Positions 1-53,932 of a stretch of 54,394 nt of DNA are shown one piece after another; within the stretch, counting starts at the first letter, position 1; each line of letters starts with the position of its first letter. Source of the stretch: Chitinivibrionales bacterium (GTDB taxonomy: Bacteria; Fibrobacterota; Chitinivibrionia; Chitinivibrionales; WJKA01); assembly GCA_014728215.1 (NCBI GenBank), contig WJLZ01000143.1:1-54394 (forward strand), in the 5' to 3' direction. The position numbers were made by a program, and so were the translations under genes. The notes beneath the pieces are model-generated. The model worked only from the letters and a program-made list of their open reading frames with translations. It was not told where the DNA came from and did no database searches.

Positions 1-286
1 CTACGATCTGGGCGAACATGAAAAAGCGGCGATTCTTTCTCTGCCGGAAGGGGATGATAAAATTCTGAAATATCCTGCGCTCTTTCACAGGATCAGCATG
101 CTGCTTATCAACAAAATCGATCTGGCTCCCTATCTCGATTTCGACATACAGAAAGCAATTAACGAATGTAAAAGCCTGAACCGGACATTCGAAACATTCA
201 GTGTCTCCGCTAAAACCGGGGAAGGCATGGATGGATTTTTTGATTATTTAAAACAGAAAGTAAAGAAGAATGGGGTAATGGAGTAG
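1..286 (+). CDS. hypB: Hydrogenase nickel-incorporation GTPase HypB, C-terminal part. The gene starts upstream of the window.
   Basis: Frame continuous from position 2. The C-terminal sequence LLINKIDLAPYLDFDIQK...SAKTGEGMDGF matches the HypB/UreG-family C-terminus. It lies immediately upstream of hypF-hypC-hypD-hypE. Confidence 0.8.
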   Translation, partial: YDLGEHEKAAILSLPEGDDKILKYPALFHRISMLLINKIDLAPYLDFDIQKAINECKSLNRTFETFSVSAKTGEGMDGFFDYLKQKVKKNGVME

Positions 287-369
287 CGGAAGGTTTGAAT
301 GCTTCAGAATGCTGTCTTGCTCCCTAAAGGATACCCCGTCACTCCATTCTTTCATTCTACCTTTTTCCC

Positions 370-2670
370 ATGATTTCATACACGATCACCATTACCGGCA
401 CTGTTCAGGGAGTAGGGTTTCGCCCCTTTGTCTATCGAACCGCCCATGCACATGGGATCAGGGGTGATGTACGGAACGATGTTTCAGGGGTGGTAATCCG
501 CGCCCGGGGTACGCAAAAACAGCTGGATGCATTTCTTGAGGATCTTTGTACCAAAACTCCTCCCCTTGCCCGGATCCGTTCGTGCGATGTTAAAGAAGAG
601 AGCCCTGGCGAGACTTATGACGATTTTGTTATCGTTGCGAGTAAACACGGGGAAAAACCTGATGTTGACATCACTCGTGATACCGCGCCATGTGCAGCCT
701 GTCTCAAAGAAATGCGCGACCACTCCAACCGCCGGTACGGTCATCCTTTTATCAATTGTACCGATTGCGGTCCCCGATATACAATAATTACCGGACTCCC
801 CTACGACCGGCCCAATACTACCATGACCGACTTTGCCATGTGTCCATTATGCAAAGCCGAATACGAAAACCCGGGAAACCGCCGGTTTCATGCTCAGCCG
901 GTCTGTTGCAACGACTGCGGTCCTTCACTTTCGCTTCTTGACGGCAAAGGAGAAGCGATTCAGGATACCGATCCGGTCGGCCGCGCCGTCGACCTGCTTG
1001 CCCAGGGCAAAATTCTGGCAATCAAGGGTCTGGGAGGGTTTCATCTTGCCTGCAGAGCCGATTGTGAAGAAACGGTGGTTATACTCCGCAACCGCAAAAG
1101 ACGGGAGCAGAAACCTCTGGCGATCATGACCGCCGGTATACCGAATGTAAAAAAATTCTGCACATTATCTGAAACCGAAAAATTTTTGCTTGAAGGAATC
1201 GAACGTCCTATTGTCATTTGTGACAAAAAAGGCGATCTACAGGGAATAGCCGAATCGGTCGCGCCGGGTGTTCCCACTCTTGGCATGATGCTTCCCTCAA
1301 CGCCTCTTCATGCCCTGCTGTTCGATACCGATCGTTATGATGCGCTTGTTATGACCAGCGGTAATCTCAGTTCGGAACCGATCTGCATAACCAACGAAGA
1401 AGCGGTTGCCAAGCTTACCGGTATTGCCGATTATTTCCTCGTCAACGACCGTCCGATCCATATACGGGTGGATGATTCCATTGTGCGGATACTTTCCGGA
1501 AACCCGGTACTCCTGAGAAGGGCCCGGGGGTATGTCCCCGCTCCCCTTCCGGTGAATTATAATGTTGAGGGCATGGTGGCATTGGGAGGCATTATGAAAA
1601 GCACGGTCTGTATCGGCCGGAAGTCAACCTGCTATGTCTCTCAATATCTCGGTAAAGCCGAAAATGTCGAAACCCTTGAGAATGGTGTCCATGTACTCGA
1701 TCATCTTATCGGCGTTCTGGGGGTGAAACCGGAACGGTATATCATCGATCTTCACCCGGGTGGATTTGTTTCATCGGTCATCACGACGGATGATTGTCCG
1801 GTGATAAAAATACAACACCATCACGCCCACGCTGCCGCATGTATGGCGGAAAACCGAATAGACGGGCCGTCGGTATGCCTTATTTATGACGGTCTTGGTC
1901 TCGGGGATGACGAGACACTCTGGGGAGGCGAAATACTTGTTGCCGATACCCGGGAATATAAACGGATCGGCCATCTGAGCCCCATGAAAATGCCCGGCGG
2001 CGATGCAGCCACGCGTAATCCCGCACGAATGGCAATCGGTGCACTGTGGGAAACGTACCCCCACACCGCTCAAAAAATCTGTCCCTGGCTTTCCCCAAAG
2101 GAACGGCAGGCGGTTATCTCCCTGCTCCAATCGGATATTAATTGCCCGGTAACCACGAGTATGGGACGGCTTTTCGATGCCCTCGCTGCGATCCTCGATA
2201 TCTGCAGAGTTCAAACCTACGAAGGACAACCGGCCATTGAGCTTGAAGGATATGCCGACAGGAACGAAAGAAGATCCTATTCCCTCGATATTGTTGATAA
2301 TGGAATACTGCTTCTCGATGGTCCCCTCCTGCTTAAGAAAGCAATCGATGATTTTCTTTCGGGCACGGATACATCGATCGTCGCAGCGCGGTTCCATAAT
2401 TCAATTGTGGATATAAGTGCGGAGGCGGCGAACATTGCCGCGAAAAAGAACGGCATTGGCACAGTGTGCCTGAGCGGTGGATGTTTCCAGAATGCATTAC
2501 TTTTCGAGCGTTTGGTTAAAAAACTGCACGATCTTAAACTAAAGCCCGTGTATCATCGTATTTTATCTCCAGGAGATGAGTGCATCTCCTTTGGGCAGGC
2601 GGTGATCGGAGGGGCGAGGAGAGCGAATATAAGTAATGAAAACATCAGGAGTAGTACGCTTAAAGATTGA
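370..2670 (+). CDS. hypF: Carbamoyltransferase HypF ([NiFe]-hydrogenase maturation)
   Basis: 766 aa. It has an N-terminal acylphosphatase-like domain, two CxxC...CxxC zinc-finger pairs (CAACLKE...CTDCGPRY; CPLC...CNDCGPS), a YrdC-like region and a Kae1/HypF C-terminal domain (HHHAH...GGCFQN). It lies within the hyp operon. Confidence 0.93.
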   Translation: MISYTITITGTVQGVGFRPFVYRTAHAHGIRGDVRNDVSGVVIRARGTQKQLDAFLEDLCTKTPPLARIRSCDVKEESPGETYDDFVIVASKHGEKPDVDITRDTAPCAACLKEMRDHSNRRYGHPFINCTDCGPRYTIITGLPYDRPNTTMTDFAMCPLCKAEYENPGNRRFHAQPVCCNDCGPSLSLLDGKGEAIQDTDPVGRAVDLLAQGKILAIKGLGGFHLACRADCEETVVILRNRKRREQKPLAIMTAGIPNVKKFCTLSETEKFLLEGIERPIVICDKKGDLQGIAESVAPGVPTLGMMLPSTPLHALLFDTDRYDALVMTSGNLSSEPICITNEEAVAKLTGIADYFLVNDRPIHIRVDDSIVRILSGNPVLLRRARGYVPAPLPVNYNVEGMVALGGIMKSTVCIGRKSTCYVSQYLGKAENVETLENGVHVLDHLIGVLGVKPERYIIDLHPGGFVSSVITTDDCPVIKIQHHHAHAAACMAENRIDGPSVCLIYDGLGLGDDETLWGGEILVADTREYKRIGHLSPMKMPGGDAATRNPARMAIGALWETYPHTAQKICPWLSPKERQAVISLLQSDINCPVTTSMGRLFDALAAILDICRVQTYEGQPAIELEGYADRNERRSYSLDIVDNGILLLDGPLLLKKAIDDFLSGTDTSIVAARFHNSIVDISAEAANIAAKKNGIGTVCLSGGCFQNALLFERLVKKLHDLKLKPVYHRILSPGDECISFGQAVIGGARRANISNENIRSSTLKD

Positions 2671-2909: not shown

Positions 2910-3988
2910 ATTTAGTGCATTTCAATGATCCATCAACTGCCAAAAAGCTTCTTGACGGCATCCATGCCCATGCTCGGAAGCTCGATCAGGTTACAATTAT
3001 GGAAGTATGCGGCACGCATACCATGGAGATCGGCCGCCTCGGATTGCGGCCCCTCCTCCCGGAAAATGTTGAACTCGTTTCCGGGCCCGGCTGTCCGGTA
3101 TGTGTGACACCGGGGACGGTAATCGACCGGGCAGCAGAGCTTGCACTTGAGCATGATGTCACCGTGTGTACATTCGGTGATATGATGCGGGTCCCCGGAA
3201 ACAAAACCTCTCTTGAAAATGCCCGCCGCCGGGGCGCCGCAATCGAGGTTGTCACATCACCACTTCAGGTACTTCAGCTTGCCGAGTCCAACCCTTCCGA
3301 AGAATATGTGTTTATTGCGGTGGGGTTCGAAACAACGATACCGGTTGTTGCACGAACCGTTGTTATAGCATCCGAAAAACGATTATCCAATATAAGCTTT
3401 ATCATCTGTCACCGTCTGGTGCCCCCGGCACTCGATGTCCTTATCGACGATAAGGATATTGCACTTTCGGGATTTCTTCTCCCGGGCCATGTCAGCGCCA
3501 TTATCGGCATGCAAGCCTATGCCGGGCTCACCGGTGCAAAAATCCCCGGGGTGGTTACCGGATTTGAACCCCTCGATATTATCGGCGGCATTCAAGCTGT
3601 CATGACTCTACTGACAGAACACCGATATGAGGTTGTCAATCGATATCCGCGCATTGTCAAACCAGAGGGTAATCCCCATGCCCTGCAGCTCATGAGTGAG
3701 GTTTTCAGCCCGGCCGATGCTGTGTTCAGGGGTATCGGGCCGATACCGAACAGCGGCCTTGCTTTACAGGAGCAATTCGGCTCCTATGATGCATGCCGCA
3801 AATACAAAATAGACATACAAGAAGATATCATGCCGAAAGGATGTTCCTGCGGTGCAGTACTGAAAGGTATTATACGTCCCGACCAGTGCCCACTCTTTGC
3901 CGGCGCCTGTACCCCCAACTCACCGGTGGGTCCTTGCATGGTGTCGAGTGAAGGTTCATGCGCGGCATACTACCGGTACGAACGGTGA
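2906..3988 (+). CDS. hypD: Hydrogenase maturation factor HypD
   Basis: 360 aa with the conserved HypD motifs CGTHT, GPGCPVC, FETT and the C-terminal CxxC...CxxC cluster. It is translationally coupled to hypC. Confidence 0.92.
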   Translation: MNLVHFNDPSTAKKLLDGIHAHARKLDQVTIMEVCGTHTMEIGRLGLRPLLPENVELVSGPGCPVCVTPGTVIDRAAELALEHDVTVCTFGDMMRVPGNKTSLENARRRGAAIEVVTSPLQVLQLAESNPSEEYVFIAVGFETTIPVVARTVVIASEKRLSNISFIICHRLVPPALDVLIDDKDIALSGFLLPGHVSAIIGMQAYAGLTGAKIPGVVTGFEPLDIIGGIQAVMTLLTEHRYEVVNRYPRIVKPEGNPHALQLMSEVFSPADAVFRGIGPIPNSGLALQEQFGSYDACRKYKIDIQEDIMPKGCSCGAVLKGIIRPDQCPLFAGACTPNSPVGPCMVSSEGSCAAYYRYER

Positions 3989-31559: not shown

Positions 31560-33860
31560 ATGACTATACAATCCAAATTTAAGTGTTCATTGATTGTTTT
31601 GCCAATTTTTGTATTAATTTTTGGGTTTTCATCATCTGCATTCCTGAGCACCCGACAAACTCGCGGAATATATTGGGATGGAGCAGTCGAAATGAAAAAA
31701 TTTACTCGCCGGGTAACTGTTCACCCCTATTTCCTTGATATTGAAGAAGATATAGAAATAGCGCCTTTTAACTGGAGACCCCCTTCCGACAATTTAAATA
31801 CACTTGAAATATACGGCCAATTCACTTTGCCGGCACAATCAGTAATCACCGGTATTCTTATCTGGTATGAAGGGAAAATTCTTAAGGGCAAAATTAAGGG
31901 AAAAGAAACTGCACGAAAACAGTACGAAGATGTTGTAGATAGAGAGACTGCACCACCCCCACGACCGCGGGATCCAATCCTCATAGAAAAAATCAGCTCC
32001 AGCGGTAATATCGATCGATATAATCTCTCAATCTACCCGGTGGAATGGGGTAAATCCCGAAAAATCCGTATTCGATACCTCTGTCCTCAACGATACATAA
32101 ATAATGATCTGATGATGCAAATACCTTCATCGATAACAACAGAAGTATCCAAATATCCTCAGGAAATATCACAGACAATTCGTGCTTACGGAAACATTGA
32201 ACGGATTAATATCATTTCACCTCGGGATACCATATCGACCTCCTTGCCTGTTTCACTTGATGATATTTACAATAGATACAAGTTGGCTTCCACCTATATT
32301 CAGATAGCCGAAAGCCAAAAATCGATGATGGTCAAAACCTCATTTGATGACGGGAACTGGAAGGGAAATTATTTGATGTACTGGGGAGCGCCGCCGGAAA
32401 GTCTTTTAATTAAAGCAGGGCTTAAACGAGAAATAGTTTTTCTCTGGAAATGGAATTTCCAGCATTCTTTTGTCTATAACGATAATTCTCAAAAAAGCAT
32501 TTCACCTTACGGCATAGAGGTAATCAACCAGGCACGACGAATTTACAATTCAAATATCGAGATCGCCGACGCCGGCGACAAAGTCGGGTTGCTTTTGGAA
32601 AAAGGGAATCCAGATATTAACAAGATGTTTCCGCTCTCGAATAAAAACACTGCAATATTTGATAGTTTACAGGATTTTCTTTCATCCATCGATTCGACCT
32701 ATCTTTTATCACATATCAGAGGCGCCGCCCCTCCTGTTAAAATCAGAATCGATGAAAATGAGCGTGAGAATTTTTTTAGAAAAAACACTGAAGCATTTGA
32801 CATTTCTTTAAAATTAATCTGCAGCCTCTTTTCTGATCATGAAAAAATACTCAAACACATTGTATTTATTTCTGCCGGACCTGTTCCTGAAATGCCCAAT
32901 CTCGAAGATTATTACATGAATAGTGACAGCGTCCTGAGCGATAGCATATCGGTTTCTGCTTATGGATCATCACCGCGGTACCCAACCGGATACTGGCCCG
33001 GTGTGCCGATGCATAAAATTATTGAGAACCATGCGTTAATGACCGAGGGTACCTACAGCAATGATTTCTGGATTCCGGAAAAAAGGCAGGCACATTTTTC
33101 AGCAACGGTTAAAAGCGAAAAAAACAGCTATGAAACAAATCTTATTGAAATACAAAACAGATATTCAGGTTGTAATTATTATTATTGCAGCAAGAATTAT
33201 TATGATACCTTGAGTGTTGACACAATGTTTTTTGCTGGCCATTCGGTAACAGATTGGCATGATGCAATCGATTGGAAGGCTTTTGACACTCAGAATAATG
33301 AATTGGCAACCTACAGCGAAATTCCATTCACAATTAATTCACCCTCCGATACTTTCTGCGCAAAACTCTGGGCAGGAACAAATCATCCCGTTTCGGATAC
33401 GACGTACATTTTAAATAGGGGGGCGCGCTATGGTATTATTGACGAACAATACTCCTTGTTAGCATTGGAACAGGATACTGTGAGCGCTGATCAAAAAGCA
33501 CTCTTGGAAAACGAAGAACTTCCTTTTCTCTCCAATGATGAAATTTTTCTTCCTGATCTTACCGAGGAAAATCCCTCAACTTCAATTTCGGCAAAGGCAC
33601 AATCCATACATATACATTCATTCGCATTTATTACTTACTGCAACGGTTCGTTTAAGCTATTGATACCGAGCAAAGAAAAGGTAAAAAGCGTAAAAATATA
33701 TGATCTTAAAGGAAGACTCGTCCATCAGTTAAGTATTAATGATTTCAATTCAATAAATATTATTACTTTTCAAAACCATGGGATTTTAGGCATGGGTATG
33801 TATGCCGTTGTTGTAGAAACTGATTTAAACCGCTATGTGAAAAACTTTCAAATCATTTAA
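31560..33860 (+). CDS. Secreted VIT-domain protein with a T9SS-type C-terminal sorting domain
   Basis: N-terminal signal/TM. Vault-protein inter-alpha-trypsin (VIT)-like N-terminal block (LEIYGQFTLPAQSVITGILIWYEGKILKGKIKGKETARKQYED...RYNLSIYPVEW). The C-terminal ~70 aa (KIYDLKGRLVHQL...GMYAVVVETDLNRYVKNFQII) matches the Por/T9SS CTD pattern. The gene is strongly AT-rich relative to its flanks. Confidence 0.6.
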   Translation: MTIQSKFKCSLIVLPIFVLIFGFSSSAFLSTRQTRGIYWDGAVEMKKFTRRVTVHPYFLDIEEDIEIAPFNWRPPSDNLNTLEIYGQFTLPAQSVITGILIWYEGKILKGKIKGKETARKQYEDVVDRETAPPPRPRDPILIEKISSSGNIDRYNLSIYPVEWGKSRKIRIRYLCPQRYINNDLMMQIPSSITTEVSKYPQEISQTIRAYGNIERINIISPRDTISTSLPVSLDDIYNRYKLASTYIQIAESQKSMMVKTSFDDGNWKGNYLMYWGAPPESLLIKAGLKREIVFLWKWNFQHSFVYNDNSQKSISPYGIEVINQARRIYNSNIEIADAGDKVGLLLEKGNPDINKMFPLSNKNTAIFDSLQDFLSSIDSTYLLSHIRGAAPPVKIRIDENERENFFRKNTEAFDISLKLICSLFSDHEKILKHIVFISAGPVPEMPNLEDYYMNSDSVLSDSISVSAYGSSPRYPTGYWPGVPMHKIIENHALMTEGTYSNDFWIPEKRQAHFSATVKSEKNSYETNLIEIQNRYSGCNYYYCSKNYYDTLSVDTMFFAGHSVTDWHDAIDWKAFDTQNNELATYSEIPFTINSPSDTFCAKLWAGTNHPVSDTTYILNRGARYGIIDEQYSLLALEQDTVSADQKALLENEELPFLSNDEIFLPDLTEENPSTSISAKAQSIHIHSFAFITYCNGSFKLLIPSKEKVKSVKIYDLKGRLVHQLSINDFNSINIITFQNHGILGMGMYAVVVETDLNRYVKNFQII

Positions 33861-33879
33861 ATTAGAAGGATATTTTATT

Positions 33880-34452
33880 ATGAGTATAAAATATTTTATT
33901 ATTGCCCCACTGGTATTTGCCTTTCTTTTGTTGCCTGCTAATGCTGAATACGCAATGACTCAATTGGATACAATCGTTCCACCGGGATTAAACCTGTGTG
34001 ATTCAATTGCTCGATTTTCTTCTTCGGTTCGATATCCAGGCTACCGTAATGATTCTTCTGTTCTGAATATTGCAACAGGCTTCTTAAAAAATCATAATAA
34101 CAGTCCCAATTATGTATGGCACCCTCCTACGATGTATGATAATGTTAGCGGCATTTTTAGTTCTTTAGAACCATTTATTGCCGCAGAAAAATCATTTGGA
34201 AATACCAAATCAGGGATTTATCTCGGGAATTTCCATACTAATAAAGCACTTCGAAACGCTCTGCATTCCCGGGATTCCATTTATAAGTTTGCTTCTAATA
34301 AAAAGAACAACTATATACGTTCAGATTTTGGATTTGAGCTCTCTCCCTTTAATATCCAATATACGCCGCACAGGAAAATCGCTGTTTCAATTACACCGGC
34401 ACTAAGCAAAGAACTTGTTGCAAGCGGCTTTGAAATCAATTACAGGTTCTAA
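33880..34452 (+). CDS. Hypothetical secreted protein
   Basis: 190 aa with signal peptide MSIKYFIIAPLVFAFLLLPANAEYA. AT-rich codon usage like the preceding gene. No recognisable domain. Confidence 0.4.
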   Translation: MSIKYFIIAPLVFAFLLLPANAEYAMTQLDTIVPPGLNLCDSIARFSSSVRYPGYRNDSSVLNIATGFLKNHNNSPNYVWHPPTMYDNVSGIFSSLEPFIAAEKSFGNTKSGIYLGNFHTNKALRNALHSRDSIYKFASNKKNNYIRSDFGFELSPFNIQYTPHRKIAVSITPALSKELVASGFEINYRF

Positions 34453-34821
34453 TTAATTAAACATTGGAGTTGTGACTTTTCCGGTTTTATTATCATAAGG
34501 CAGGAAATATTTGATCTTTAGCAGCAACCGTACAGTATTTATTCGGTAGTACTGTATCCCAAAAATTCCCGCCCAAACCATTCTTCCTATGCGCCACAGG
34601 GCGCATAGCTATTAAAAAGCATTTTCAACGTGGGGTTCAAGGGGTGGAAACCCCTTCCATATTATTACATGTATATCAAGCCTCATCCCCATTCATAATT
34701 CAGTTTACTCTCTGCAATAGTGGTCTATAAATTGCTAAAGAGTATTTATATCAGCATAACGGTATAAGCAGGAATATGAGCATAAGCAAAAACGATTATT
34801 TATCACCATGGAAATTATCGT

Positions 34822-35244
34822 ATGTCATTTTTATCTTTTATTGAAGCGCAGATTAAATTGGCTCCTTTCCTGGGCTCCGCTACGATTATTCGATCAAATG
34901 CTCAACTTCGACTGCCTCCCAAAGCAGTTATTTTGACCTTTGATGACGGCCCGAATAGCGAAAACTCAACCACCGAGCGGCTGCTATCTACATTAAAAAA
35001 GCACAATATTAAGGCACACTTTTCATTAATCGGCAAGAACATGGATACGGTTATTAGAAGGAATATTGATGGTATTATTTATCAGAATGGCGGAATCATC
35101 GTCCTTCATGATGGAAAAGTCTTTCGGAATAAAGATTCTCGTCCGAAATACAACCGGAGCTGGATTCCCGATGCTACCGAAAGCATAATCTGCATTCTGC
35201 AAAGCTGGGGATTTTATTTTATGCGCTTTGTTGATATAGTGTAA
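34822..35244 (+). pseudogene. Truncated polysaccharide deacetylase (CE4/NodB-homology) fragment
   Basis: 140 aa carrying CE4 motif 1 (LTFDDGPNSE) and part of the following region, but far shorter than a complete NodB domain and lacking the downstream motifs. Likely a gene remnant in the AT-rich island. Confidence 0.4.
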
Positions 35245-35247
35245 AAT

Positions 35248-35279
35248 AAGGGGAATAACCCCTTCAATATTTATTTTTT
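35248..35279. terminator. Bidirectional rho-independent terminator shared by convergent genes
   Basis: A perfect stem AAGGGG-AATAA-CCCCTT (35248..35264) is flanked by T-runs on the + strand (CAATATTTATTTTTT) and A/T-rich sequence on the - strand. It lies between the stops of the 34822..35244(+) and 35279..36223(-) genes. Confidence 0.6.
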
Positions 35280-36223
35280 CACGAACTCACCACCACCATA
35301 TTCCTCCCCTCCCGCTTGGCTTTATACAAGGCGACATCGGCCTTTTTAACCAGGGCATCGGAGGAGGTAATACCGTTGCCGCAGGAGGCAACACCGATAC
35401 TGATAGTAATAGAGGGGTGATTACTTAAATTTTCTTCCACCCGCTCACGGAGCCGTCGGGCCAGGGCTGCGGCATGAAGGATATCGGTTGAGGGAAGGAT
35501 AACCACAAATTCTTCTCCTCCATACCGGCAGCAGGTATCACATTCCCGGGTCTCGGCATCGAGGAATCGCCCCAGTTTACACAAGACAATATCTCCCTCT
35601 GGATGACCGTACTGATCGTTCAATTGCTTGAAATTGTCAATATCAATCATCATCAATGAAACGGTATCACCATAGCGGTCATACCGTTTCATTTCGATAT
35701 CGAGGCGCTGAAAACAATACGAATGATTGTAAAGCCCCGTAAGTCCATCGTGACTGGAAAGCCGTACGAAATCTCTAAACTGTTGTTCGCTGACAAATGT
35801 GGCGGAGCCGACCAAATTAGAGACGTTGGAGAGATAGTCGAGTGCTGCGACTGTAATTTTAATATTCCTGCGGACCAGTGTCGACATCTCGTATTTATGT
35901 CGCAGAATTCTGTACCAGAGATCTTTTGCCGTCTCGGGCCGGAATACCTGGTGAGTAACCGCATAGAGAAGTTCGGAGAAAAAGACTATCCCCTGTTCAT
36001 CCCGTTTTCGCTCGATCTCCGCCATTTCATCATGATTAAGTTCACGATCGCCTGCAAATGCCGACACAATATCCACGGAGAGCGGCTTTTCTTCGAGAAG
36101 CTCGAACATCAGCTCTTCATCATCCGGTACTCGTGCCGACCCGTTGATGTTTTCAGCGCTTATCATCATCATTATTCCTTCCTTTAAACGGCATGTCCCA
36201 TTTTCAAATCGAGTATCATTCAC
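35279..36223 (-). CDS. GGDEF-domain diguanylate cyclase with an N-terminal sensory/regulatory region
   Basis: C-terminal GGDEF domain with an intact RYGGEEF active site and upstream DxLTGLYN motif. The N-terminal ~140 aa are of unknown type. An alternative start lies at MMMISAE (36172). Confidence 0.8.
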   Translation of the reverse strand: MNDTRFENGTCRLKEGIMMMISAENINGSARVPDDEELMFELLEEKPLSVDIVSAFAGDRELNHDEMAEIERKRDEQGIVFFSELLYAVTHQVFRPETAKDLWYRILRHKYEMSTLVRRNIKITVAALDYLSNVSNLVGSATFVSEQQFRDFVRLSSHDGLTGLYNHSYCFQRLDIEMKRYDRYGDTVSLMMIDIDNFKQLNDQYGHPEGDIVLCKLGRFLDAETRECDTCCRYGGEEFVVILPSTDILHAAALARRLRERVEENLSNHPSITISIGVASCGNGITSSDALVKKADVALYKAKREGRNMVVVSS

Positions 36224-38942: not shown

Positions 38943-39671
38943 CTATTGCCATTTTCTCCGGGGCCGGGGCCTGACACGGAAAAAGTTTACGGTTGCGATA
39001 CCCATCAGAAATCCGCCGATATGGGCCCAGAACGCCACGCCCCCGCCGCCGTCCATCCCGATTGTCGGCAGTGCAGAAAAGAGCTGGAGCATAAACCAGT
39101 ATCCCAAAACGAAAATGGCAGGGATATCGATACGGGCAACATAAAATCCCAGAAAAATCAAAATTTCTATTTTGGCCCGGGGATAGAGTATCGCATAGGC
39201 CCCCATTACCCCTCCTATTGCACCCGAAGCGCCCACCATGGGAACAACACTCGATGGAGTGATTGTCAATTGCGCGGCCGCGGCGATAAGACCGGAGAGA
39301 AGATAGACCAGTATGAATTTAAACCGCCCAAAAGCATCTTCAACATTATCCCCGAATATCCACAGAAACCACATGTTACTGATTATATGAAGCCATCCCG
39401 CATGGAGAAACATGGATGAAAAAAGGGTGGACCAGTTGGGCGACTCTCCGATCATGCATCCAAACGTTCTGCTGACCGGAATGATTGTCCCGGGAGCGGC
39501 GGTACCCAGAAGCTCTCCGGGAATGAGACCAAAATTGCATATTGATTTTATGAGAAATGGATGGGCGCCGAACCGCTGAACCGCACCCCATATAAAACAA
39601 TTGATACCAATGATTATCCACGTCACAATCGGCTTCTTTAAAGTCGGATTATTATCGCGAATTGGAAACAT
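38943..39671 (-). CDS. Rhomboid-family intramembrane serine protease (paralog 1)
   Basis: Start taken at MFPIRDNNP (ORF opens at 39767). Catalytic GASGAIGG (Ser) and AHIGGF (His) motifs are present, with 6-7 TM helices. About 70% identical to the protein encoded at 40756..41481. Confidence 0.85.
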   Translation of the reverse strand: MFPIRDNNPTLKKPIVTWIIIGINCFIWGAVQRFGAHPFLIKSICNFGLIPGELLGTAAPGTIIPVSRTFGCMIGESPNWSTLFSSMFLHAGWLHIISNMWFLWIFGDNVEDAFGRFKFILVYLLSGLIAAAAQLTITPSSVVPMVGASGAIGGVMGAYAILYPRAKIEILIFLGFYVARIDIPAIFVLGYWFMLQLFSALPTIGMDGGGGVAFWAHIGGFLMGIATVNFFRVRPRPRRKWQ

Positions 39672-39798
39672 GGACTCCCCCTGCAAGAGCCGACTCCTTG
39701 GTGATTGCAAATACTCTCCATTACAGTTTCGTAAAACGCAAAGTATATGCCACACCCATACGCTCATATTTCACTGCCGATTTCCCCTTTACTAAAAG

Positions 39799-40755: not shown

Positions 40756-41481
40756 TTATCCGCGATCTTGTTTTTGCTTTTGTTTGATTCCGAGAACATA
40801 GACTGATGCGATTCCGGCGAGGAACCCCCCGATATGAGCCCAGAAAGCAACACCACCGGTGGCGGTGCCGATTGTGGGCAGTGCGGAGATAAGTTGGATA
40901 AAAAACCAGTATCCGAGCATAAAAATGGCCGGCACATCGATACGGGTTATAAAAAATCCCAGGAACACAAGCATTTCGACCCGCGCACGGGGAAAGAGTA
41001 CGGCATAGGCGCCCATAATACCTCCTATTGCTCCTGATGCCCCTACCATGGGGATAGTGCTTGATGGATTTATCATAATCTGCGCGCCGGCGGCGACAAG
41101 ACCCGAAAGAAGATAAACAATAATGTATTTAACCTTACCAAAGGTATCTTCAATATTATCACCAAATACCCACAGAAACCACATGTTGCCGATAATGTGA
41201 AGCCATCCACCATGCATAAACATCGAGGAAACAAGAGTAAACCAGTCGGGAGAACGGTCGATCGTACAGGCCACCCCTTTGCTGATAGGAATCTGAGTTC
41301 CTGCCGGGACCGTGCCGAGAAGTTCACCGGGAATGAGCCCGTAGTTACATACCGATTTGATAAGGGCTGGTTGTGTACCCAGCCCCTGAATCAGTATCCA
41401 TACGGCCGCATTGATTCCGATAATCACATAAGTAATGACCGGGGTATGGATTGTCGGGTTATCGTCTCGAAGCGGAAACAT
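40756..41481 (-). CDS. Rhomboid-family intramembrane serine protease (paralog 2)
   Basis: 241 aa, MFPLRDDNP start, with GASGAIGG and AHIGGF catalytic motifs. It is collinear with, and about 70% identical to, the 38943..39671 product. Confidence 0.85.
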   Translation of the reverse strand: MFPLRDDNPTIHTPVITYVIIGINAAVWILIQGLGTQPALIKSVCNYGLIPGELLGTVPAGTQIPISKGVACTIDRSPDWFTLVSSMFMHGGWLHIIGNMWFLWVFGDNIEDTFGKVKYIIVYLLSGLVAAGAQIMINPSSTIPMVGASGAIGGIMGAYAVLFPRARVEMLVFLGFFITRIDVPAIFMLGYWFFIQLISALPTIGTATGGVAFWAHIGGFLAGIASVYVLGIKQKQKQDRG

Positions 41482-41568: not shown

Positions 41569-42153
41569 TTATTCCGTTTTTGTTTCTGCGATACCGATAA
41601 CGCCGCAGGCCACACGGGGGCCGGCATTACCGGTGGGCTGTGATTCCAGGTCATCGGGATTGACATGGACCACGAGTGCCCGTCCAATAATGGAATATTC
41701 TCCGTTCAGTGCGATGACCGAATCGATAAACTCAAACGTTGCCATTCCCTGCTGGTTTGCCTCGATATTGCCAAGGTCGCCCACATGCCGGAGAGAATCG
41801 GTAGGAGCGCCGTGGGGCATTCCGCGCGGTGCGTAGTGTCCTCCGGCAGAAGTAGCATCATCGGCAGAACAGTCGCCATATTCATGCACATGAAAGCCAT
41901 GTTTGCCGGGTTCTAATCCGGTAACCTCGCCCTGTACCCGAATCGCGTTGTTGATCTTCTCGAATTGCACCGTGCTGCGGACATCATTGCCTTCGGTCGG
42001 GTGAAGGACAGCGACCGCAGACATTACCTCGGGTGACATTGTTTGAGCAGCCTGAGATTCGGCGGCGCCTCCTTGCGGCGTGCCTTCATCACAAGCGGTA
42101 AAAAACAGAGCGATTGTTACTGCCGAAAAAACACCTTTTTCCAAGAAATGCAT
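41569..42153 (-). CDS. sodC: Copper/zinc superoxide dismutase (periplasmic/lipoprotein)
   Basis: HGFHVHEYGDC, GGHYAP and GDLGNIEA metal-ligand motifs and a C-terminal PRVACGVIG. The N-terminal signal with FFTACDEG suggests a lipoprotein. Confidence 0.9.
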   Translation of the reverse strand: MHFLEKGVFSAVTIALFFTACDEGTPQGGAAESQAAQTMSPEVMSAVAVLHPTEGNDVRSTVQFEKINNAIRVQGEVTGLEPGKHGFHVHEYGDCSADDATSAGGHYAPRGMPHGAPTDSLRHVGDLGNIEANQQGMATFEFIDSVIALNGEYSIIGRALVVHVNPDDLESQPTGNAGPRVACGVIGIAETKTE

Positions 42154-43725: not shown

Positions 43726-44604
43726 TCAGGTCAACCCGCGCTCATCATAGAATGCATACAGTTTGCGCTCATAGACATCCGTACCTTCTTTTTCATCGTA
43801 GGCAGGCGATTTCTGCAAGTCATCATTCGACAGGGTAAGTTCGATTTCGGATGTGGCGGAGCGGAAATCGCTTATATGCCCGACCGGAAGGAGGATATAT
43901 TTTTCTTTTACTTTCTGAGGCGGTTTTGCGATCAGGTAGCGCACCGACCAGTCGCTGTCGTCAATTAAAACATCATTGCAGGCAGCTCCCTGTTCATCGG
44001 TGGTAAGAATCGTATACTCCCTGATCCGTCCGGCACTGTGAATCGATGCCGAATAGGAGCGTTCTTCGGAAGGTTCGGCAAATTCCAGCTCTCTCATTTC
44101 CTCGTCTTCAGGTTCACCGGAAGCAAGTGTCTGAGCGGCCCCATAATCACCTTCATCGTAATTATAGGCATCGGGCGCCTCCCGTTCCTCATCGACACCC
44201 CTCGTACCGTCCTCATAGGGAATTCCTGTCTCATCCATTTTCTTCACTCGCGGGGTATCCATAAACGATGACTGTCCCCAGTAGACGGGCCATTCGTAAT
44301 ACCGATGCAAGGCCATTTCATACTCCCGGCTGATCGGTAAGTCAACATCGGTTTCAGGACTGTTATATACCTTTTCCCGGGTTAAGGGCAGTTTTAAAAT
44401 CCTGTTATCCCAGTCAAAACTTCCCAGGGCAGTAATGGCAACCAGCGCGGTCCGCGCTTCAATGGGCTCTTCAATCTGAATAGCGATATAACGCATATTC
44501 CATTCTTCTTCATCAAAATAGAGATCTTTTACTGTACCAACATCTCCATCACTGCATTGCACGATAATACCGAAAAATTCTGTTGCTCGGCGCAACATAA
44601 ACAC
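43726..44604 (-). CDS. Tandem PRC-barrel domain stress protein with an acidic linker
   Basis: An N-terminal PRC-barrel-like segment (GTVKDLYFDEEEWNMRYIAIQ) and a C-terminal second copy (ACNDVLIDDSDWSVRYLIAKP) are separated by a Glu/Asp-rich linker. Confidence 0.6.
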   Translation of the reverse strand: MFMLRRATEFFGIIVQCSDGDVGTVKDLYFDEEEWNMRYIAIQIEEPIEARTALVAITALGSFDWDNRILKLPLTREKVYNSPETDVDLPISREYEMALHRYYEWPVYWGQSSFMDTPRVKKMDETGIPYEDGTRGVDEEREAPDAYNYDEGDYGAAQTLASGEPEDEEMRELEFAEPSEERSYSASIHSAGRIREYTILTTDEQGAACNDVLIDDSDWSVRYLIAKPPQKVKEKYILLPVGHISDFRSATSEIELTLSNDDLQKSPAYDEKEGTDVYERKLYAFYDERGLT

Positions 44605-44738
44605 CTCCTGGGGGGAAAACTCGAAATCCGAAATTCGAAATCCGAAATAATTATCAGTTCATGGCCTAATGGCCATACCATTGAGCGGTCAGGTCGATTA
44701 CCTTAATCCACCATCCTTATCCATTATTCTTTCTTACC

Positions 44739-45944
44739 CTACTTAATCGCCTCCTGCAACTGCGGTTCGGTCATTTCCTGATGGGATTCGATGAGTTCAC
44801 GGGCTGCATCGAGTTTGTTCCATACATTGCACATCATGGCACCCCTTACCCGATTGTCTTTGAGGTAGTAGATGATACCGATCTGGTTTTCCTTTTGCCA
44901 GTCGGAGACTGTTTCCAATGAAGGATCGGTTTCGCCGACCGCTTCATAGCCGAAATCAAAGAGATCGGAAAAGAAGTAGGGCAGATAAGTAAATGGTTCC
45001 TTACTGCCAGCCATGTTTTTGCCTGCATGCTCGCCCTGGGTCATTGCAGCATCCCAATGTTCGATCCGACGGCGTGAATTCAGGGCGGGATAGTGGAAAT
45101 TGGTATTATCACCGACTGCGTATATATCCGGATTAGAGGTCTGAAAATATCCATTAACAATTATCCCGTTTTCGAGAGCGAGACCGGCATTTTCAGCTAT
45201 CGCAATCGCAGGGGTGATTCCGATTCCTGCAATGACGATTTCACTTTCGTAACGCTTCCCTTTTTTGGTAGTTGTTATGAAGAGTTTGTCTTTGCGTTCA
45301 ATGGCGGTCGGGATATCACCGGCATCGATCCTGATTCCGTTTTCCTGATATTTACGCAAAACAGTCGTACCCAGTGATTCGGGAAAAACACGCCCGCACA
45401 TGTAATCTTCGGGAAACACCATAGTCACGGCAAGGTTCTGCTGGCTGAGAGATGCCGCAATTTCCGAACCGATAAATCCACCGCCGATCACCACCACCCG
45501 GGTTCCTTCTTTTGCAAGATCGCGAATCCGCTTGTAATCGTCAAGATACCGATAATAGCAGATTTCCGGATCATCCCCTCCGGGTATGGACAGTTTTTTC
45601 GGTATACCTCCTGTTGCAAGGAGAAGCTTTTCATAGCCGACCTGATTTCCGGAACTGTCGCTGATCGTTTTATTCTGCGCATCACATTGCGTTATGGTAA
45701 CGCCAAGCTTTGTCGCTACCTGCTTATCGCCGTAAAACGAAAAATCTTCAACAAAAATGTCATCAATACTTTTGGTCTTGCTCCATAATGATTTAGTGAG
45801 CGGAGGCCGATGATAAGGAAGGTGTTTTTCGGCCCCGATCAGAAGGATTGAACCTTCAGCGTCGATGGTGCGAATACCCTTTGCTGCTGAAATACCGGCC
45901 AGACCGCCGCCTACTATTACATATTTATACATTTCTTTAGCCAT
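44739..45944 (-). CDS. FAD-dependent NAD(P)H oxidoreductase of the rubredoxin-reductase/AIF/ferredoxin-reductase family (candidate NAD(P)H:rubredoxin oxidoreductase)
   Basis: Start at MAKEMYKYVIVGGGLAGISAAKGIR (FAD GxGxxG), with a second Rossmann motif VVVIGGGFIGSEIA for NAD(P)H. Length about 400 aa and no redox-active CxxxxC. It lies about 220 nt downstream of the SOR gene on the same strand. Confidence 0.7.
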   Translation of the reverse strand: MAKEMYKYVIVGGGLAGISAAKGIRTIDAEGSILLIGAEKHLPYHRPPLTKSLWSKTKSIDDIFVEDFSFYGDKQVATKLGVTITQCDAQNKTISDSSGNQVGYEKLLLATGGIPKKLSIPGGDDPEICYYRYLDDYKRIRDLAKEGTRVVVIGGGFIGSEIAASLSQQNLAVTMVFPEDYMCGRVFPESLGTTVLRKYQENGIRIDAGDIPTAIERKDKLFITTTKKGKRYESEIVIAGIGITPAIAIAENAGLALENGIIVNGYFQTSNPDIYAVGDNTNFHYPALNSRRRIEHWDAAMTQGEHAGKNMAGSKEPFTYLPYFFSDLFDFGYEAVGETDPSLETVSDWQKENQIGIIYYLKDNRVRGAMMCNVWNKLDAARELIESHQEMTEPQLQEAIK

Positions 45945-46164
45945 GATAAAACTCCCTTGGAGGGTGAAAAGTCTCAGTTCAAAAATTTGCAAACCCCGTT
46001 GATAGAAAACGCTCTCATCTCCATGCTATCATGGGTGTATCGTTTCATAGAGTTAAGGAGAGGATAAGAGATCACGAATTCGGATCAGAAACGGCAATTT
46101 TGGTTCCCGATCTGAAATCGTGATCTCAAATCCAACACCCTTCATCAACCTTAACCGTTATACC

Positions 46165-46572
46165 TTACGAAATATCGATTTTCTTTGAATTCTGCCACAA
46201 TCCGTGAATGTTGCAGTAACTCGATGCAAGGATCGTACCGGGTTTATCGGCTTTAAAACTCACGGATGCACCATGATGCGTATACACACCGCTGGTGTCG
46301 GGACCTTCAGTTGAAGCTCCATGGGCGGCAAATTCAACCTTGCCGATCTCATAGGGGAACTTGCTTCCCTCCGGATGAAAGTACACACCGATCCATCGGA
46401 TATGGTGCTCAGTTTTGTTGGGATGAGCAACTTCTTTACCGATAGTCACATTTACCTGAATATACTCGCTCTTTTTTCCGCTGTCGGGAGCTTCGATTAC
46501 CGGCACATGTTTTTCGGTTTTCCAATCTGCACTCTGAAACAGGTCACTGTACGTTTCCATTGTAGCTTCCAT
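46165..46572 (-). CDS. sor: Superoxide reductase (1Fe-SOR, neelaredoxin/desulfoferrodoxin centre II type)
   Basis: About 130 aa with EKHVPVIE, H..H ligands (HPNKTEHHIRW), and C...H (SYCNIHGLW), typical of the SOR Fe(His)4Cys site. It lies 32 nt downstream of the encapsulin gene on the same strand. Confidence 0.85.
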   Translation of the reverse strand: MEATMETYSDLFQSADWKTEKHVPVIEAPDSGKKSEYIQVNVTIGKEVAHPNKTEHHIRWIGVYFHPEGSKFPYEIGKVEFAAHGASTEGPDTSGVYTHHGASVSFKADKPGTILASSYCNIHGLWQNSKKIDIS

Positions 46573-46603
46573 TAACTACCTCCAAATTTTATGGTGATGA
46601 AAT

Positions 46604-47434
46604 TCAGGGCGTCTTACCCGACGCCTGCAAACGGCATACTGCCGATGGGACATTTAAGCGTAAGGCAAGGCTTTCCGATAAAATAAATGTATAGTTTCTT
46701 CCTTCAGGTCCTTCAAAAGCGGTCATTATATCCTGACCGAGCATAATTGAGGCATACTGCATTCCCTCGGCCAGAAGGACTCCTCCACGGTCAACTGATG
46801 CGGCTTTAACTACATTCCCACCAAGCATCTGACGCATATGGTCTATTTCAAGGACATTCCCCTGGGGATACCGTTCGAAAAGTGCGGTATACCGGGCAGG
46901 ATCAAGGGCAAGAATATAGGGACCGTGGTGTCCTGCATTGTCGAGTTTCTCGATCGCTTTCATGACATCATGAACACCATCTCCAACCTGTTTCCATTCT
47001 TTAAGACTCACCGACTGCACCCCATCCGAATTCAACAGTCCTTTGGAACCAAGGCTCTGCGATCCGTAATACAGCAGCCGGTCTTCCTTACGAGCACACC
47101 GCTGAGCAGCCTGAACAACATTTCTCATGTTCATGGGTAATCCATAGCGCTCATACGTATCGATATCCCGTGCCGAAATGGTGAATGAAGTGGAAATCAG
47201 CGGGACCGGTATAGAACAGTCGGCGGTCACGCTTGTCTCTTCATCGCTGTCGCGTTCGAGGGGACTTTCTCCGGAGGGGAGTGATTTAAATCCTAGCCCA
47301 TAGGGTCCGATTGTTGCCAGCACGCGCCGGGCGCTCAATTCAGCTTCAGCCGATTTTGCCACAATCCTGTCGATCAGCTCCCATACCTTATCGCCGAACG
47401 GGGCATCGTCTCTCATTAAAAATTTTTCGCTCAT
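46604..47434 (-). CDS. enc: Family 1 encapsulin nanocompartment shell protein (HK97-fold, linocin M18-like)
   Basis: 276 aa, collinear with T. maritima-type encapsulins. Shared blocks: FGDKVWELIDRIV, GPYGLGFKSLP, LISTSFTISARDIDTYERYG, HGPYILALDPARYTAL, LGQDIMTAFEGPEGRNYTFILSESLALRL. It is immediately preceded by the EncFtn cargo gene. Confidence 0.85.
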   Translation of the reverse strand: MSEKFLMRDDAPFGDKVWELIDRIVAKSAEAELSARRVLATIGPYGLGFKSLPSGESPLERDSDEETSVTADCSIPVPLISTSFTISARDIDTYERYGLPMNMRNVVQAAQRCARKEDRLLYYGSQSLGSKGLLNSDGVQSVSLKEWKQVGDGVHDVMKAIEKLDNAGHHGPYILALDPARYTALFERYPQGNVLEIDHMRQMLGGNVVKAASVDRGGVLLAEGMQYASIMLGQDIMTAFEGPEGRNYTFILSESLALRLNVPSAVCRLQASGKTP

Positions 47435-47443
47435 CTATGCCTC

Positions 47444-47830
47444 CTAGGATCTGCTTTTAAGATCCCCGATTGTCGGGATCGTTTTTGATTCTTCCTTTGA
47501 TTCTTCATTATCCACAGGCTTTTCACCCTTGCTCAGACTCTCTCTCATCTCATCGACCTCCTCAGCGCCTTCCTCCATATATCCCTGCTCATCGCCGGCA
47601 AGAATACTGATCAGGCGTTGAAATTCGCCTTTATGGACTCGTTCTTCATTGGCGACATCCTGAAGGACTGCTTTGGCCAGAGGATTATCGGTGGCATCGG
47701 CCAGCGCTTCATATAAATGTGTAGCTTCTTCTTCCGCGCTCAACGAAAGCCTCAGGCCCCGGAGCAGCTCTCTTGTGGTGATTTTCCTGTCGGGGACCAA
47801 CCCTGTGAACGGATTTACAAATTCGGGCAT
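47444..47830 (-). CDS. encFtn: Encapsulated ferritin-like cargo protein (EncFtn) with a C-terminal encapsulin-targeting peptide
   Basis: 128 aa with the EncFtn-type ferroxidase ligands (EEEATHLYE; ANEERVHKGEF, i.e. E/ExxH motifs) and a C-terminal extension ending TIPTIGDLKSRS that fits the family-1 cargo-loading peptide (T/S-I-G-x-L-K). It sits directly upstream of the shell gene with a 9-nt gap. Confidence 0.8.
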   Translation of the reverse strand: MPEFVNPFTGLVPDRKITTRELLRGLRLSLSAEEEATHLYEALADATDNPLAKAVLQDVANEERVHKGEFQRLISILAGDEQGYMEEGAEEVDEMRESLSKGEKPVDNEESKEESKTIPTIGDLKSRS

Positions 47831-48220: not shown

Positions 48221-48801
48221 TTGAGGATGAGTTCTATGAAAACTGATATCGGCCTTGTAAGCATGGGACCGGTTGATCGGCAATTGATTAACCGCCTTAA
48301 GACAGATCTTGAAGAAAGGGATATCGGTAGTTCGGTAGTGTTGTCGTTCTGGGAGAGATCGACCTGCCCGATAAGGCGTATAATCCCCGACGACGGCAGT
48401 ATCGGGGTGGCCCTCTTTTAGATATGCTGTGTGGATACCGGAACCGGGAAACCGGCCGAGTGCTTGGTCTTGTCGAAGGGGATTGCTATGTGGAGAGTCT
48501 CAATTTTGTGTTTGGCCTTGCAACCCGGGGCGGACGGGAAGCGCTGATTGCACTCCCCCGCCTTCGTGCAGGCATTGCCGGCCGCCGCCCGGACCCGAAA
48601 ACCATTGATAATCGTATTCTGAAAGAAGCACTCCATGAACTCGGCCACAACTGGGGTCTCGATCATTGCAATAACCCCGATTGTGTCATGCGTTTCTCAT
48701 TGACCCTGGCCGAAGTTGACGAAAAAAGCTCTTCTTTTTGCAAACAATGTGCGGTGAAGAGGGAGTCAAAGATTTTGGAAAGGGATGGAAATACAGCGTA
48801 A
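48221..48801 (+). pseudogene. amzA: Archaemetzincin (AmzA-type zinc metallopeptidase) interrupted by a frameshift near 48345-48365
   Basis: The C-terminal ORF carries HELGHNWGLDHC...CVM (HExxHxxGxxH + Cys pair) and NFVFGLA. The N-terminal ORF (MKTDIGLVSMGPVDRQLINRL) matches the AmzA N-terminus. Reading the C-terminal frame upstream gives DLPDKAYNPRRRQYRGGPLLDML, the conserved RxQY...LL block. The two halves are therefore in different frames, and together make about 190 aa. Confidence 0.7.
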
Positions 48802-53167: not shown

Positions 53168-53932
53168 ATGGTACGAAAAAGCCGTGAGGAAAAGCTCAAA
53201 AGCGAGCATCTACCGGAACGTGTCCAGGAACGCATACGCCACACCAGAAAAGAGAGCGTTCTGAGTGACTCGGTTCTGGGCGGCATTGATGGTGCGGTGA
53301 CAACATTTGCGGTTGTAGCGGGCGCCCGGGGAGGTGGATTTGCGCCCATGGTCACAATTGTCCTGGGACTTGCCAATCTTCTGGCCGATGGTTTCAGTAT
53401 GGCGGTGAGTAATTATGAAGCCCAGACTGCGCAAAAAGATGAGGTTAAAAAGCTGAAAGCCCAGGAAGAACGACAGGTCAGTGAAATTCCTGAAGGTGAA
53501 AAAGAAGAAATCCGGGCGATATTCCGGATCAAGGGTTTTAGGGGCGATATTTTGGAAAAAATTGTCGCCACCATTACCGCAAATCCGCAGGTGTGGATCG
53601 ATACGATGCTCCATGAAGAACTCGGTGTAAGCGAAGAAAGGAAAAAACCTGTCCTTTCGGCAGCTGCTACCTTTACAACCTTTCTGGTAATCGGTATCAT
53701 CCCGCTCATCCCTTTTCTGCTTCCTCTTCCCCTTTTTTCGGTCCCCCTCCCTTTCAGTGTGGGTCTGACAGCACTCACGTTCCTCGGCATCGGAATGACA
53801 AAAGGGAAAATCCTTCAGCGCCCGGTATTTGCCTCAGGAATTCAAACCCTTTTCACCGGTGGCGCAGCAGCCGTTCTGGCCTATGTAACAGCTATCCTGG
53901 TACGAAATATTTACCCGGATGTTGGAGGGTGA
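53168..53932 (+). CDS. VIT1/CCC1-family iron/manganese transporter
   Basis: The N-terminal motif VLGGIDGAVTTFAVVAGA...LANLLADGFSMAVSNY is typical of the VIT1/CCC1 family. The C-terminal half is hydrophobic. Confidence 0.8.
   Translation: MVRKSREEKLKSEHLPERVQERIRHTRKESVLSDSVLGGIDGAVTTFAVVAGARGGGFAPMVTIVLGLANLLADGFSMAVSNYEAQTAQKDEVKKLKAQEERQVSEIPEGEKEEIRAIFRIKGFRGDILEKIVATITANPQVWIDTMLHEELGVSEERKKPVLSAAATFTTFLVIGIIPLIPFLLPLPLFSVPLPFSVGLTALTFLGIGMTKGKILQRPVFASGIQTLFTGGAAAVLAYVTAILVRNIYPDVGG

Follow-up and report, generated by a model that had tools for sequence, protein, structure and literature searches.

Superoxide reductase as a recurrent third gene beside an EncFtn encapsulin pair in a Chitinivibrionales contig and related loci

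A 54,394-nt contig of a Chitinivibrionales (Fibrobacterota) metagenome-assembled genome, analyzed over its whole length and referred to here as the window, carries four co-directional genes on its minus strand: an EncFtn-type ferritin-like cargo protein, a Family 1 encapsulin shell, a class II one-iron (1Fe) superoxide reductase (SOR) and a flavoprotein oxidoreductase (Table 1). An earlier reading of these letters alone (the sequence-only reading) had described the four genes as a single module, and all four open reading frames (ORFs) were recovered where it had placed them. We find that EncFtn, shell and SOR genes form a conserved unit, and that the flavoprotein gene stands outside it. The EncFtn and shell genes are separated by 9 nt, the shell and SOR genes by 31 nt (previously given as 32 nt), and the SOR and flavoprotein genes by 220 nt. 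Each of the first three is preceded by a GGAG or GGAGG ribosome-binding site, with GGAG standing before the EncFtn ATG and the GGAGG of the shell gene overlapping the EncFtn stop codon. Because PFOR and HypF/D/E genes are present, we read the host as an anaerobe.

The cargo protein scored 100.7 bits against the NCBIfam model EncB_fam (NF058679; cutoff 90) and matched Pfam Rubrerythrin with E=5.7e-9. Its score against the older TIGR04535 model, 68 bits, lies below the cutoff of 125, so that EncFtn membership holds for the broader subfamily model only. Among solved structures the protein comes closest to M. xanthus EncC (7S8T, E=7e-16) and to P. furiosus EncFtn (5N5E), and phmmer alignments to these two revealed the E/ExxH ferroxidase ligands: E33 and Y40 are identical residues within an A-E...L-Y motif, E63 and H66 fit an E-E-x-x-H motif, and the ligand motifs are kept in nine related EncFtn sequences. 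We take the aligned Glu, Glu-x-x-His and Tyr to be the ferroxidase-center residues, following work on R. rubrum EncFtn. The protein ends in a targeting (cargo-loading) peptide, TIPTIGDLKSRS, which matches a consensus, [IV]PT[IV]G[DNS][LM][KR], that is C-terminal in about 60 related EncFtn proteins, and which resembles the published TVGSL-type motif (PMC8346489). A six-frame motif search identified EncFtn as the sole ORF with a targeting-peptide-like C terminus in the window. In two related loci (L036 and L039; related loci carry the prefix L throughout), EncFtn has an unusual Cys-rich tail (…VPTVGDLRSSECSCECCRRRSL) beyond the targeting peptide, which is normally terminal.

The adjacent gene encodes an HK97-fold Family 1 shell, with matches far above chance to NCBIfam encap_f1 (NF041155; 234.4 bits, cutoff 100, positions 1-261 of 261) and to Pfam Linocin_M18 (E=1.5e-70). 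It also matches forty-odd solved structures, all of them encapsulins, the best being 9I8E (E=3e-42), M. xanthus EncA and 6NJ8, and in sequence the larger shells of the M. xanthus EncA and 6NJ8 types stand nearer to it than that of T. maritima does. Judged by eye against the T. maritima sequence, Arg probably takes the place of the flavin-binding Trp90 in the window shell. With both ferroxidase ligands and targeting peptide present, the cargo–shell pair is a genuine Family 1 EncFtn system, as the sequence-only reading had held on all of these points. The shell is predicted to assemble into an icosahedral particle enclosing EncFtn, with a T number that we can only guess from the nearest solved relatives, and the EncFtn of the window is predicted to form an annular decamer with ferroxidase activity and without intrinsic storage.

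The third gene product matched Desulfoferrodox (E=6e-32) and TIGR00332 (115 bits, cutoff 62), and aligned with A. fulgidus neelaredoxin (4BFF, E=2e-47) through its EKHVP, HPNxTEHH and CNIH motifs. The underlying E-K-H, H-x5-H-H and C-x2-H motifs align with 4BFF, 2AMU and 1DO6 and represent the His4Cys iron site together with the Glu-Lys pair. There is no N-terminal desulforedoxin (Cys4) domain: the SORL domain runs from the start, and the TIGR00320 dfx_rbo score is 44 bits against a cutoff of 147. NCBI and homologs favor the second ATG (46560), which gives a family-standard length of 131 aa. The protein is, as had been proposed, a 1Fe SOR lacking a targeting peptide, and no targeting-peptide-like motif was found at either end of any SOR linked to an encapsulin, the termini of these proteins matching those of free-standing SORs of known structure. 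Both features lead us to regard the SOR as probably cytosolic, co-expressed with the compartment rather than encapsulated, a location that we read from sequence.

The association between these genes extends well beyond the window. All four nearest shell homologs on long contigs (55-64% shell identity) carry the EncFtn-shell-SOR triad amid otherwise different flanking genes, and the triad occurs in 5/5 loci of the window's shell clade; four remoter shell homologs (≤51% identity) have the EncFtn-shell pair only. SOR directly follows the shell gene in L002-L006, L023 and L091-L094, the last four being new triads that emerged from SOR-first reciprocal look-ups (P0032, 79% identity; P0062, from another Chitinivibrionales genome). 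This synteny in related genomes establishes the SOR linkage as real and conserved, not incidental.

For a wider census, an exact-sequence look-up of the shell protein matched no contig and a contig scan with that protein alone yielded only one locus, the truncated L001, whereas 80 further loci came from metagenomes; 72 remained once shells sharing 90% identity had been dereplicated. Neighbors within 2 kb of the shell gene were compared using all ORFs, all-versus-all BLASTP and a conservation-weighted choice among ORFs. EncFtn was present in 63 of the 72 loci, and SOR was the top accessory family (12 loci), followed by a small single-cluster ferredoxin (6), DJ-1/PfpI (5), DUF2769 and DUF302 (4 each), rubrerythrin and CBS (3 each) and the Fur family (2). 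Of the 46 informative loci, those with enough flanking sequence, 9 have SOR as a direct neighbor running in the same direction. Rubrerythrin, Fur-family regulators, DJ-1/PfpI and ferritin were other recurrent neighbors and, with the anaerobic host, fit an oxidative-stress and iron setting.

The linkage takes two gene orders, EncFtn-shell-SOR and SOR-EncFtn-shell, and involves two SOR subfamilies, the class II type and a type with a Cys-containing N-terminal extension and the sequence CNLHGTW. Members of the latter lie directly upstream of EncFtn in another shell clade, share 28-32% identity with the window SOR, carry two Cys in the extension and have KKH in place of EKH. SOR-positive loci fall into at least three to four separate groups of the neighbor-joining shell tree, and because SOR types and gene orders differ, multiple origins of the linkage are indicated independently of that tree.

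We then considered where the unit ends. No terminator-like element was found in the shell-SOR gap in any of eight EncFtn-shell-SOR loci, and a canonical GC-stem and T-run terminator follows SOR within ~110 nt in five of the eight (L003, L004, L006, L023 and L093). With no terminators inside the unit and terminators after SOR, the conserved unit comprises three genes, and EncFtn, shell and SOR are presumably co-transcribed in the window organism as judged from this arrangement. The window itself likewise has neither a terminator nor a promoter between its shell and SOR genes. Sigma-70 and terminator scans of the window locus returned results at or below shuffle expectation, and we therefore make no promoter claim. 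A search for a shared operator or promoter upstream of EncFtn found nothing conserved across five upstream regions (34% column identity), the sole inverted repeat upstream of the window EncFtn being imperfect (16 nt, 75%). At the equivalent position past the window SOR lies a long hairpin, taken from the centroid structure, in a gap with z = -2.6 over its whole length as far as the flavoprotein gene; it is possibly a transcript end or a stabilizer. In L006, the shell-SOR region spans 122 nt with a stable fold (-33 kcal/mol) and no T-run, which could be a processing or attenuation element.

The fourth gene behaves differently. Although its longest ORF starts at TTG 45992, the ATG at 45944 is favored as the start, being served by an AAGGGAG ribosome-binding site and agreeing with the 401-aa ortholog in L002. 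Matches to Pyr_redox_2 (E=2e-59) and Pyr_redox (E=4e-14), with an AIF_C/Reductase_C tail, define a fold with two dinucleotide-binding domains; no NCBIfam equivalog reached its cutoff (NorW, 149 bits vs 392). The nearest solved structures are AIF (E=2e-58), putidaredoxin reductase (E=9e-48), MDHAR and 3FG2 (a putative rubredoxin reductase), with E=7e-34 for 3KLJ, which is annotated as a NirB-family dehydrogenase and which we take to be C. acetobutylicum NROR, and E=2e-26 for P. aeruginosa rubredoxin reductase (2V3A). Proteins of this family are found very widely, with generic annotations only. Downstream of SOR, the flavoprotein recurs only in L002 (63% identity), where a VIT1 gene intervenes, and other genes occupy this place in L003, L006, L023 and L093. 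A homolog, P0154 (62% identity), adjoins, as in L002, the gene for pyruvate dehydrogenase (PDH) E1, and neither SOR nor encapsulin genes lie near it. A six-frame search of the whole window found no rubredoxin, small ferredoxin, rubrerythrin or Fur gene.

These observations divide the four-gene module of the sequence-only reading: the SOR belongs to it by conservation, and the flavoprotein, set off by a 220-nt gap with a hairpin and recurring in one relative only, does not, and is probably a separate transcription unit. Its proposed role as a rubredoxin-reductase-like electron supplier for SOR is likewise not supported, as AIF and putidaredoxin reductase are nearer and the window has no rubredoxin. 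The idea of a dedicated SOR reductase was downgraded on account of the AIF-type nearest structures and the placement of P0154 beside PDH E1.

Several further genes accompany these loci (Table 1). A small single-cluster ferredoxin of 62-76 aa (Fer4_13/Fer4_15), lacking a targeting peptide, is encoded immediately before EncFtn in several relatives whether SOR is present or not, and is a candidate electron carrier, either to SOR or for iron release. In L010 and L013 the encapsulin pair, and in L002 and L095 the AIF-like flavoprotein, is followed by PDH E1/E2 genes, a repeated pattern that may be the trace of an older syntenic block having nothing to do with SOR. A gene of the VIT1 family, putative iron/manganese transporters, lies 5.3 kb upstream of the window EncFtn, and the VIT1 protein of L002 is 47% identical to it; there may be a loose association of iron export with the module. 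Close behind the flavoprotein gene lies one for a protein with two PRC-barrel domains, with homologs within ~3 kb of the triad in L093 and L094 (E=2e-35) and a weaker match in L002. Abutting the ribosome-binding site of the PRC-barrel gene on its upstream side is a short run of alternating ATTTCGG/ATTTCGA heptamers.

Table 1. Positions of genes and other features in the window and in related loci
Feature	Sequence	Position	Strand	Remarks
EncFtn-type ferritin-like cargo	window	47444..47830	(-)	128 aa; operon gene 1
C-terminal targeting (cargo-loading) peptide TIPTIGDLKSRS	window	47447..47482	(-)	EncFtn C terminus
Family 1 encapsulin shell, HK97 fold	window	46604..47434	(-)	276 aa
Class II 1Fe (neelaredoxin-type) SOR	window	46165..46572	(-)	135 aa; last gene of conserved unit
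Long hairpin	window	46068..46127	(-)	10+3+10 bp, ~23 base pairs; 37 nt past SOR stop; no U-tract
FAD/NAD(P)H oxidoreductase, AIF/putidaredoxin-reductase type	window	44739..45944	(-)	401 aa; neighbor
ATTTCGG/ATTTCGA heptamers	window	~44618-44650
Protein with two PRC-barrel domains	window	43726-44598	(-)
Cu/Zn superoxide dismutase	window	41569-42153	(-)
Rhomboid-family protease paralogs	window	38943-39767; 40756-41481	(-)
Low-GC stretch	window	32001-36000
Peptidase_M54 (archaemetzincin family), split	window	48221-48421; 48424-48801	(+)
VIT1-family gene	window	53168-53932	(+)
VIT1 gene	related locus	L002 7700-8491		between SOR and flavoprotein
Shell-SOR region	related locus	L006 6823-6944
Divergent SOR subfamily	related loci	L012 16-312; L013 3152-3553; L031 ~40-588; L071 ~225-659		directly upstream of EncFtn
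Small ferredoxin	related loci	L003 972-1160; L004 5140-5370; L006 5277-5468; L093 2475-2705; L027 ~3268-3450; L090 ~1163-1342
PDH genes	related loci	L002 9947-12622; L010 5854-8514; L013 after shell; L095 7264-9909
PRC-barrel homologs	related loci	L093 6842-7612; L094 4125-4895; L002 3556-4248

From the gene identities, ligands, targeting peptide, co-directional SOR linkage and terminator pattern observed here, we read the locus, with a probability of roughly 0.7, as an iron-storing EncFtn nanocompartment with a co-transcribed, non-encapsulated SOR, which would make up a three-gene oxygen-exposure module of a strict anaerobe. The C-terminal TIPTIGDLK would direct EncFtn decamers into the HK97-fold shell, where they would oxidize Fe(II) at the di-iron ferroxidase center, with the Fe(III) mineral kept in the shell lumen. 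The same transcript would supply a soluble class II SOR that remains outside the shell. Superoxide frees Fe(II) from Fe-S clusters and can reductively mobilize ferritin-type mineral; SOR removes superoxide and yields H2O2. By clearing superoxide, the SOR would prevent both the stripping of Fe(II) from clusters and the reductive leaching of iron from the mineral core, and the H2O2 that it makes and the Fe(II) released, the two Fenton reagents, would be consumed together by EncFtn. In a review of EncFtn, ferroxidases of this type are described as able to oxidize Fe(II) with O2 or H2O2 (PMC11202242); with SOR removing superoxide and EncFtn using H2O2 and Fe(II), the pair would take away both reagents. 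We infer on these grounds a chemical coupling of SOR and EncFtn through O2.-, H2O2 and Fe(II). The flavoprotein would be a generic NAD(P)H:ferredoxin-type reductase that may supply SOR via an unlinked carrier.

A number of points weigh against this three-gene module. The linked SORs are ordinary members of the very large class II family, 70-80% identical to SORs of many phyla and with no sign of specialization, and no SOR electron carrier is encoded nearby in this window. The shell tree is a neighbor-joining tree without bootstrap, and the hairpin beyond SOR lacks a U-tract, so that read-through into the flavoprotein gene is possible. In 37/46 informative EncFtn-shell loci there is no adjacent SOR, and the coupling is thus facultative. 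Since oxidative-stress genes often cluster in anaerobes, moreover, co-regulation need not mean direct chemical coupling, and SOR may sit beside the encapsulin merely through PerR/Fur-type stress regulons, with shared induction and no specific interplay. The many loci without SOR, the unspecialized nature of the linked proteins and the shifting mix of stress genes in related loci (rubrerythrin, Fur family, DJ-1/PfpI, ferritin, hemerythrin, AhpC) would all suit such an explanation. SOR is, however, twice as frequent as any other accessory family and always abutting and co-directional with gaps of 25-161 nt, two SOR subfamilies have contributed to at least three separate recruitments, and far fewer loci (3) have rubrerythrin, the other classic partner; we consider co-regulation alone unlikely, while giving it some weight. 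The chance is smaller again that the flavoprotein and the small ferredoxin of the relatives serve reductive iron release from the core rather than SOR, by analogy with Bfd/Bfr and the ferric reductase EncD. A Fer4_13/15 ferredoxin does lie directly upstream of EncFtn in L003, L004, L006, L093, L027 and L090, some of them without SOR, VIT1 iron-transporter genes occur in L002 and the window, and the same review names cytoplasmic ferredoxins or flavoproteins as candidate donors (PMC11202242). Yet only the window and L002 show the flavoprotein linked to the triad, its homolog otherwise sits beside PDH E1, it has no targeting peptide, and the window has no ferredoxin gene.

More intimate arrangements of SOR and shell appear less probable still. 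SOR might be physically docked at or near the shell, for example at its pores, via a non-canonical signal, such that H2O2 is made where EncFtn oxidizes Fe(II) and H2O2 rather than O2 is the physiological oxidant in anaerobes; this is a long shot, and if true, the compartment would be a closed superoxide-to-mineral detoxification organelle. We put slightly less weight even than this on the proposal that SOR is a non-canonical cargo or shell-docked partner carrying a signal other than a C-terminal targeting peptide. Its sole evidence is the tight, recurrent genetic linkage, to which may be added the precedent of N-terminal targeting motifs on ferredoxins of IMEF encapsulin systems (PMC8346489), while the proteins show no such motif, have termini like those of free-standing SORs and a family-standard length of 131 aa, and encapsulation would sit uneasily with the need of SOR for an electron-donating protein from outside. 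SOR as cargo was dropped as a leading idea, the motif being missing. At the far end, we give almost no credence to the shell being a prophage HK97 capsid remnant and the cluster no encapsulin system. Such an origin could be read into a secondary Pfam match to Major_capside (PF09950, E=6e-10) and into the public NCBI name, only 'DUF2184 domain-containing protein', but the encap_f1 score of 234 bits is more than twice the cutoff of 100, its nearest solved relatives are encapsulins without exception, the gene 9 nt upstream encodes an EncFtn with a targeting peptide, and Pfam scans of neighbors ~10 kb on each side detected no portal, terminase or protease genes. Misannotation of encapsulins has been noted in a published census (PMC8346489), and the window shell is an example.

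Elsewhere in the window, a Cu/Zn superoxide dismutase with a lipoprotein-like signal (…FFTAC…) is encoded 4 kb from the cytoplasmic SOR, and a periplasmic dismutase and a cytoplasmic SOR thus share one neighborhood in a strict-anaerobe-type genome. An archaemetzincin-family (Peptidase_M54) gene is split over two frames, the second ORF covering profile positions 64-167 of 170 and the first one expected to give the N terminus; either a frameshift has made it a pseudogene or the assembly is in error here. GC content falls to 0.38-0.41, against ~0.49 elsewhere, in a stretch that encodes a VIT-domain protein, a short polysaccharide-deacetylase fragment and a GGDEF protein and that may be acquired DNA. 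Two rhomboid-family protease paralogs lie less than 2.5 kb apart. Scanning the window for Rfam families and tRNAs gave no hits.

Compared with known systems, the window operon shares its two-gene core, with cargo directly upstream of shell, with Family 1 Flp/EncFtn systems (R. rubrum, H. ochraceum, T. maritima, and M. xanthus EncA with EncB/EncC), as it does the short two-helix ferritin-like cargo, the E/ExxH ligands, the C-terminal T-[IV]-G-x-L-[KR] and the encap_f1 shell. Unlike them, it has SOR as a third cistron, conserved in the clade and recurrent elsewhere. From the SOR-rubredoxin-NROR pathway (P. furiosus, A. fulgidus neelaredoxin, Clostridium) it retains a standard class II 1Fe SOR and a nearby pyridine-nucleotide flavoprotein, but there is no rubredoxin gene in the window, the flavoprotein is AIF/putidaredoxin-reductase-like, and the SOR gene sits in an encapsulin operon rather than in a sor-rub-rbr cluster. 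The IMEF encapsulin operons of Firmicutes likewise combine iron storage with a conserved accessory redox protein, a 2Fe-2S ferredoxin (PMC8346489). That ferredoxin has a TVGSL targeting-like motif and co-purifies with shells, whereas the window SOR has no such motif, and the accessory function is superoxide reduction here and, putatively, iron release there. In P. furiosus, rubrerythrin tubules enclose EncFtn-encapsulin fusion particles, and a similar chain has been proposed in which SOR yields H2O2, a peroxide-handling di-iron protein removes it and the encapsulin sequesters iron (bioRxiv 10.1101/2025.03.19.643997). The link in that organism is spatial and proteomic (proteomics and cryo-EM) and runs through rubrerythrin, with the SOR gene outside the encapsulin operon; in the window it is genetic and runs through SOR.

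No description of a linkage to SOR (desulfoferrodoxin/neelaredoxin) or rubredoxin was found in the full-text searchable encapsulin literature, in agreement with the suggestion of the sequence-only reading that the arrangement is not a commonly described one, and the word 'superoxide' does not occur in the main text of the census (PMC8346489). Its supplementary neighborhood table nonetheless contains at least one case, Lentisphaerae GWF2_45_14, with the order neelaredoxin-ferredoxin-EncFtn-shell-Fe/Mn superoxide dismutase. Because that supplement lists the case without comment, the SOR-encapsulin association is latent in published data, and existing census neighborhood tables already hold such cases, unremarked. 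The encapsulin pair itself belongs to a well-known kind of system, and SOR in its operon is a modest, undiscussed but recurrent variant.

Structures of encapsulated ferritins are already well characterized, and the linkage bears instead on which oxidant they use physiologically, what they do in anaerobes and which proteins they work with. For Flp-type Family 1 operons, SOR is a candidate for a conserved component that is not cargo, and its recurrent, independently evolved operon fusion offers a cheap-to-test idea, namely that superoxide removal and encapsulated mineralization may operate as one circuit.

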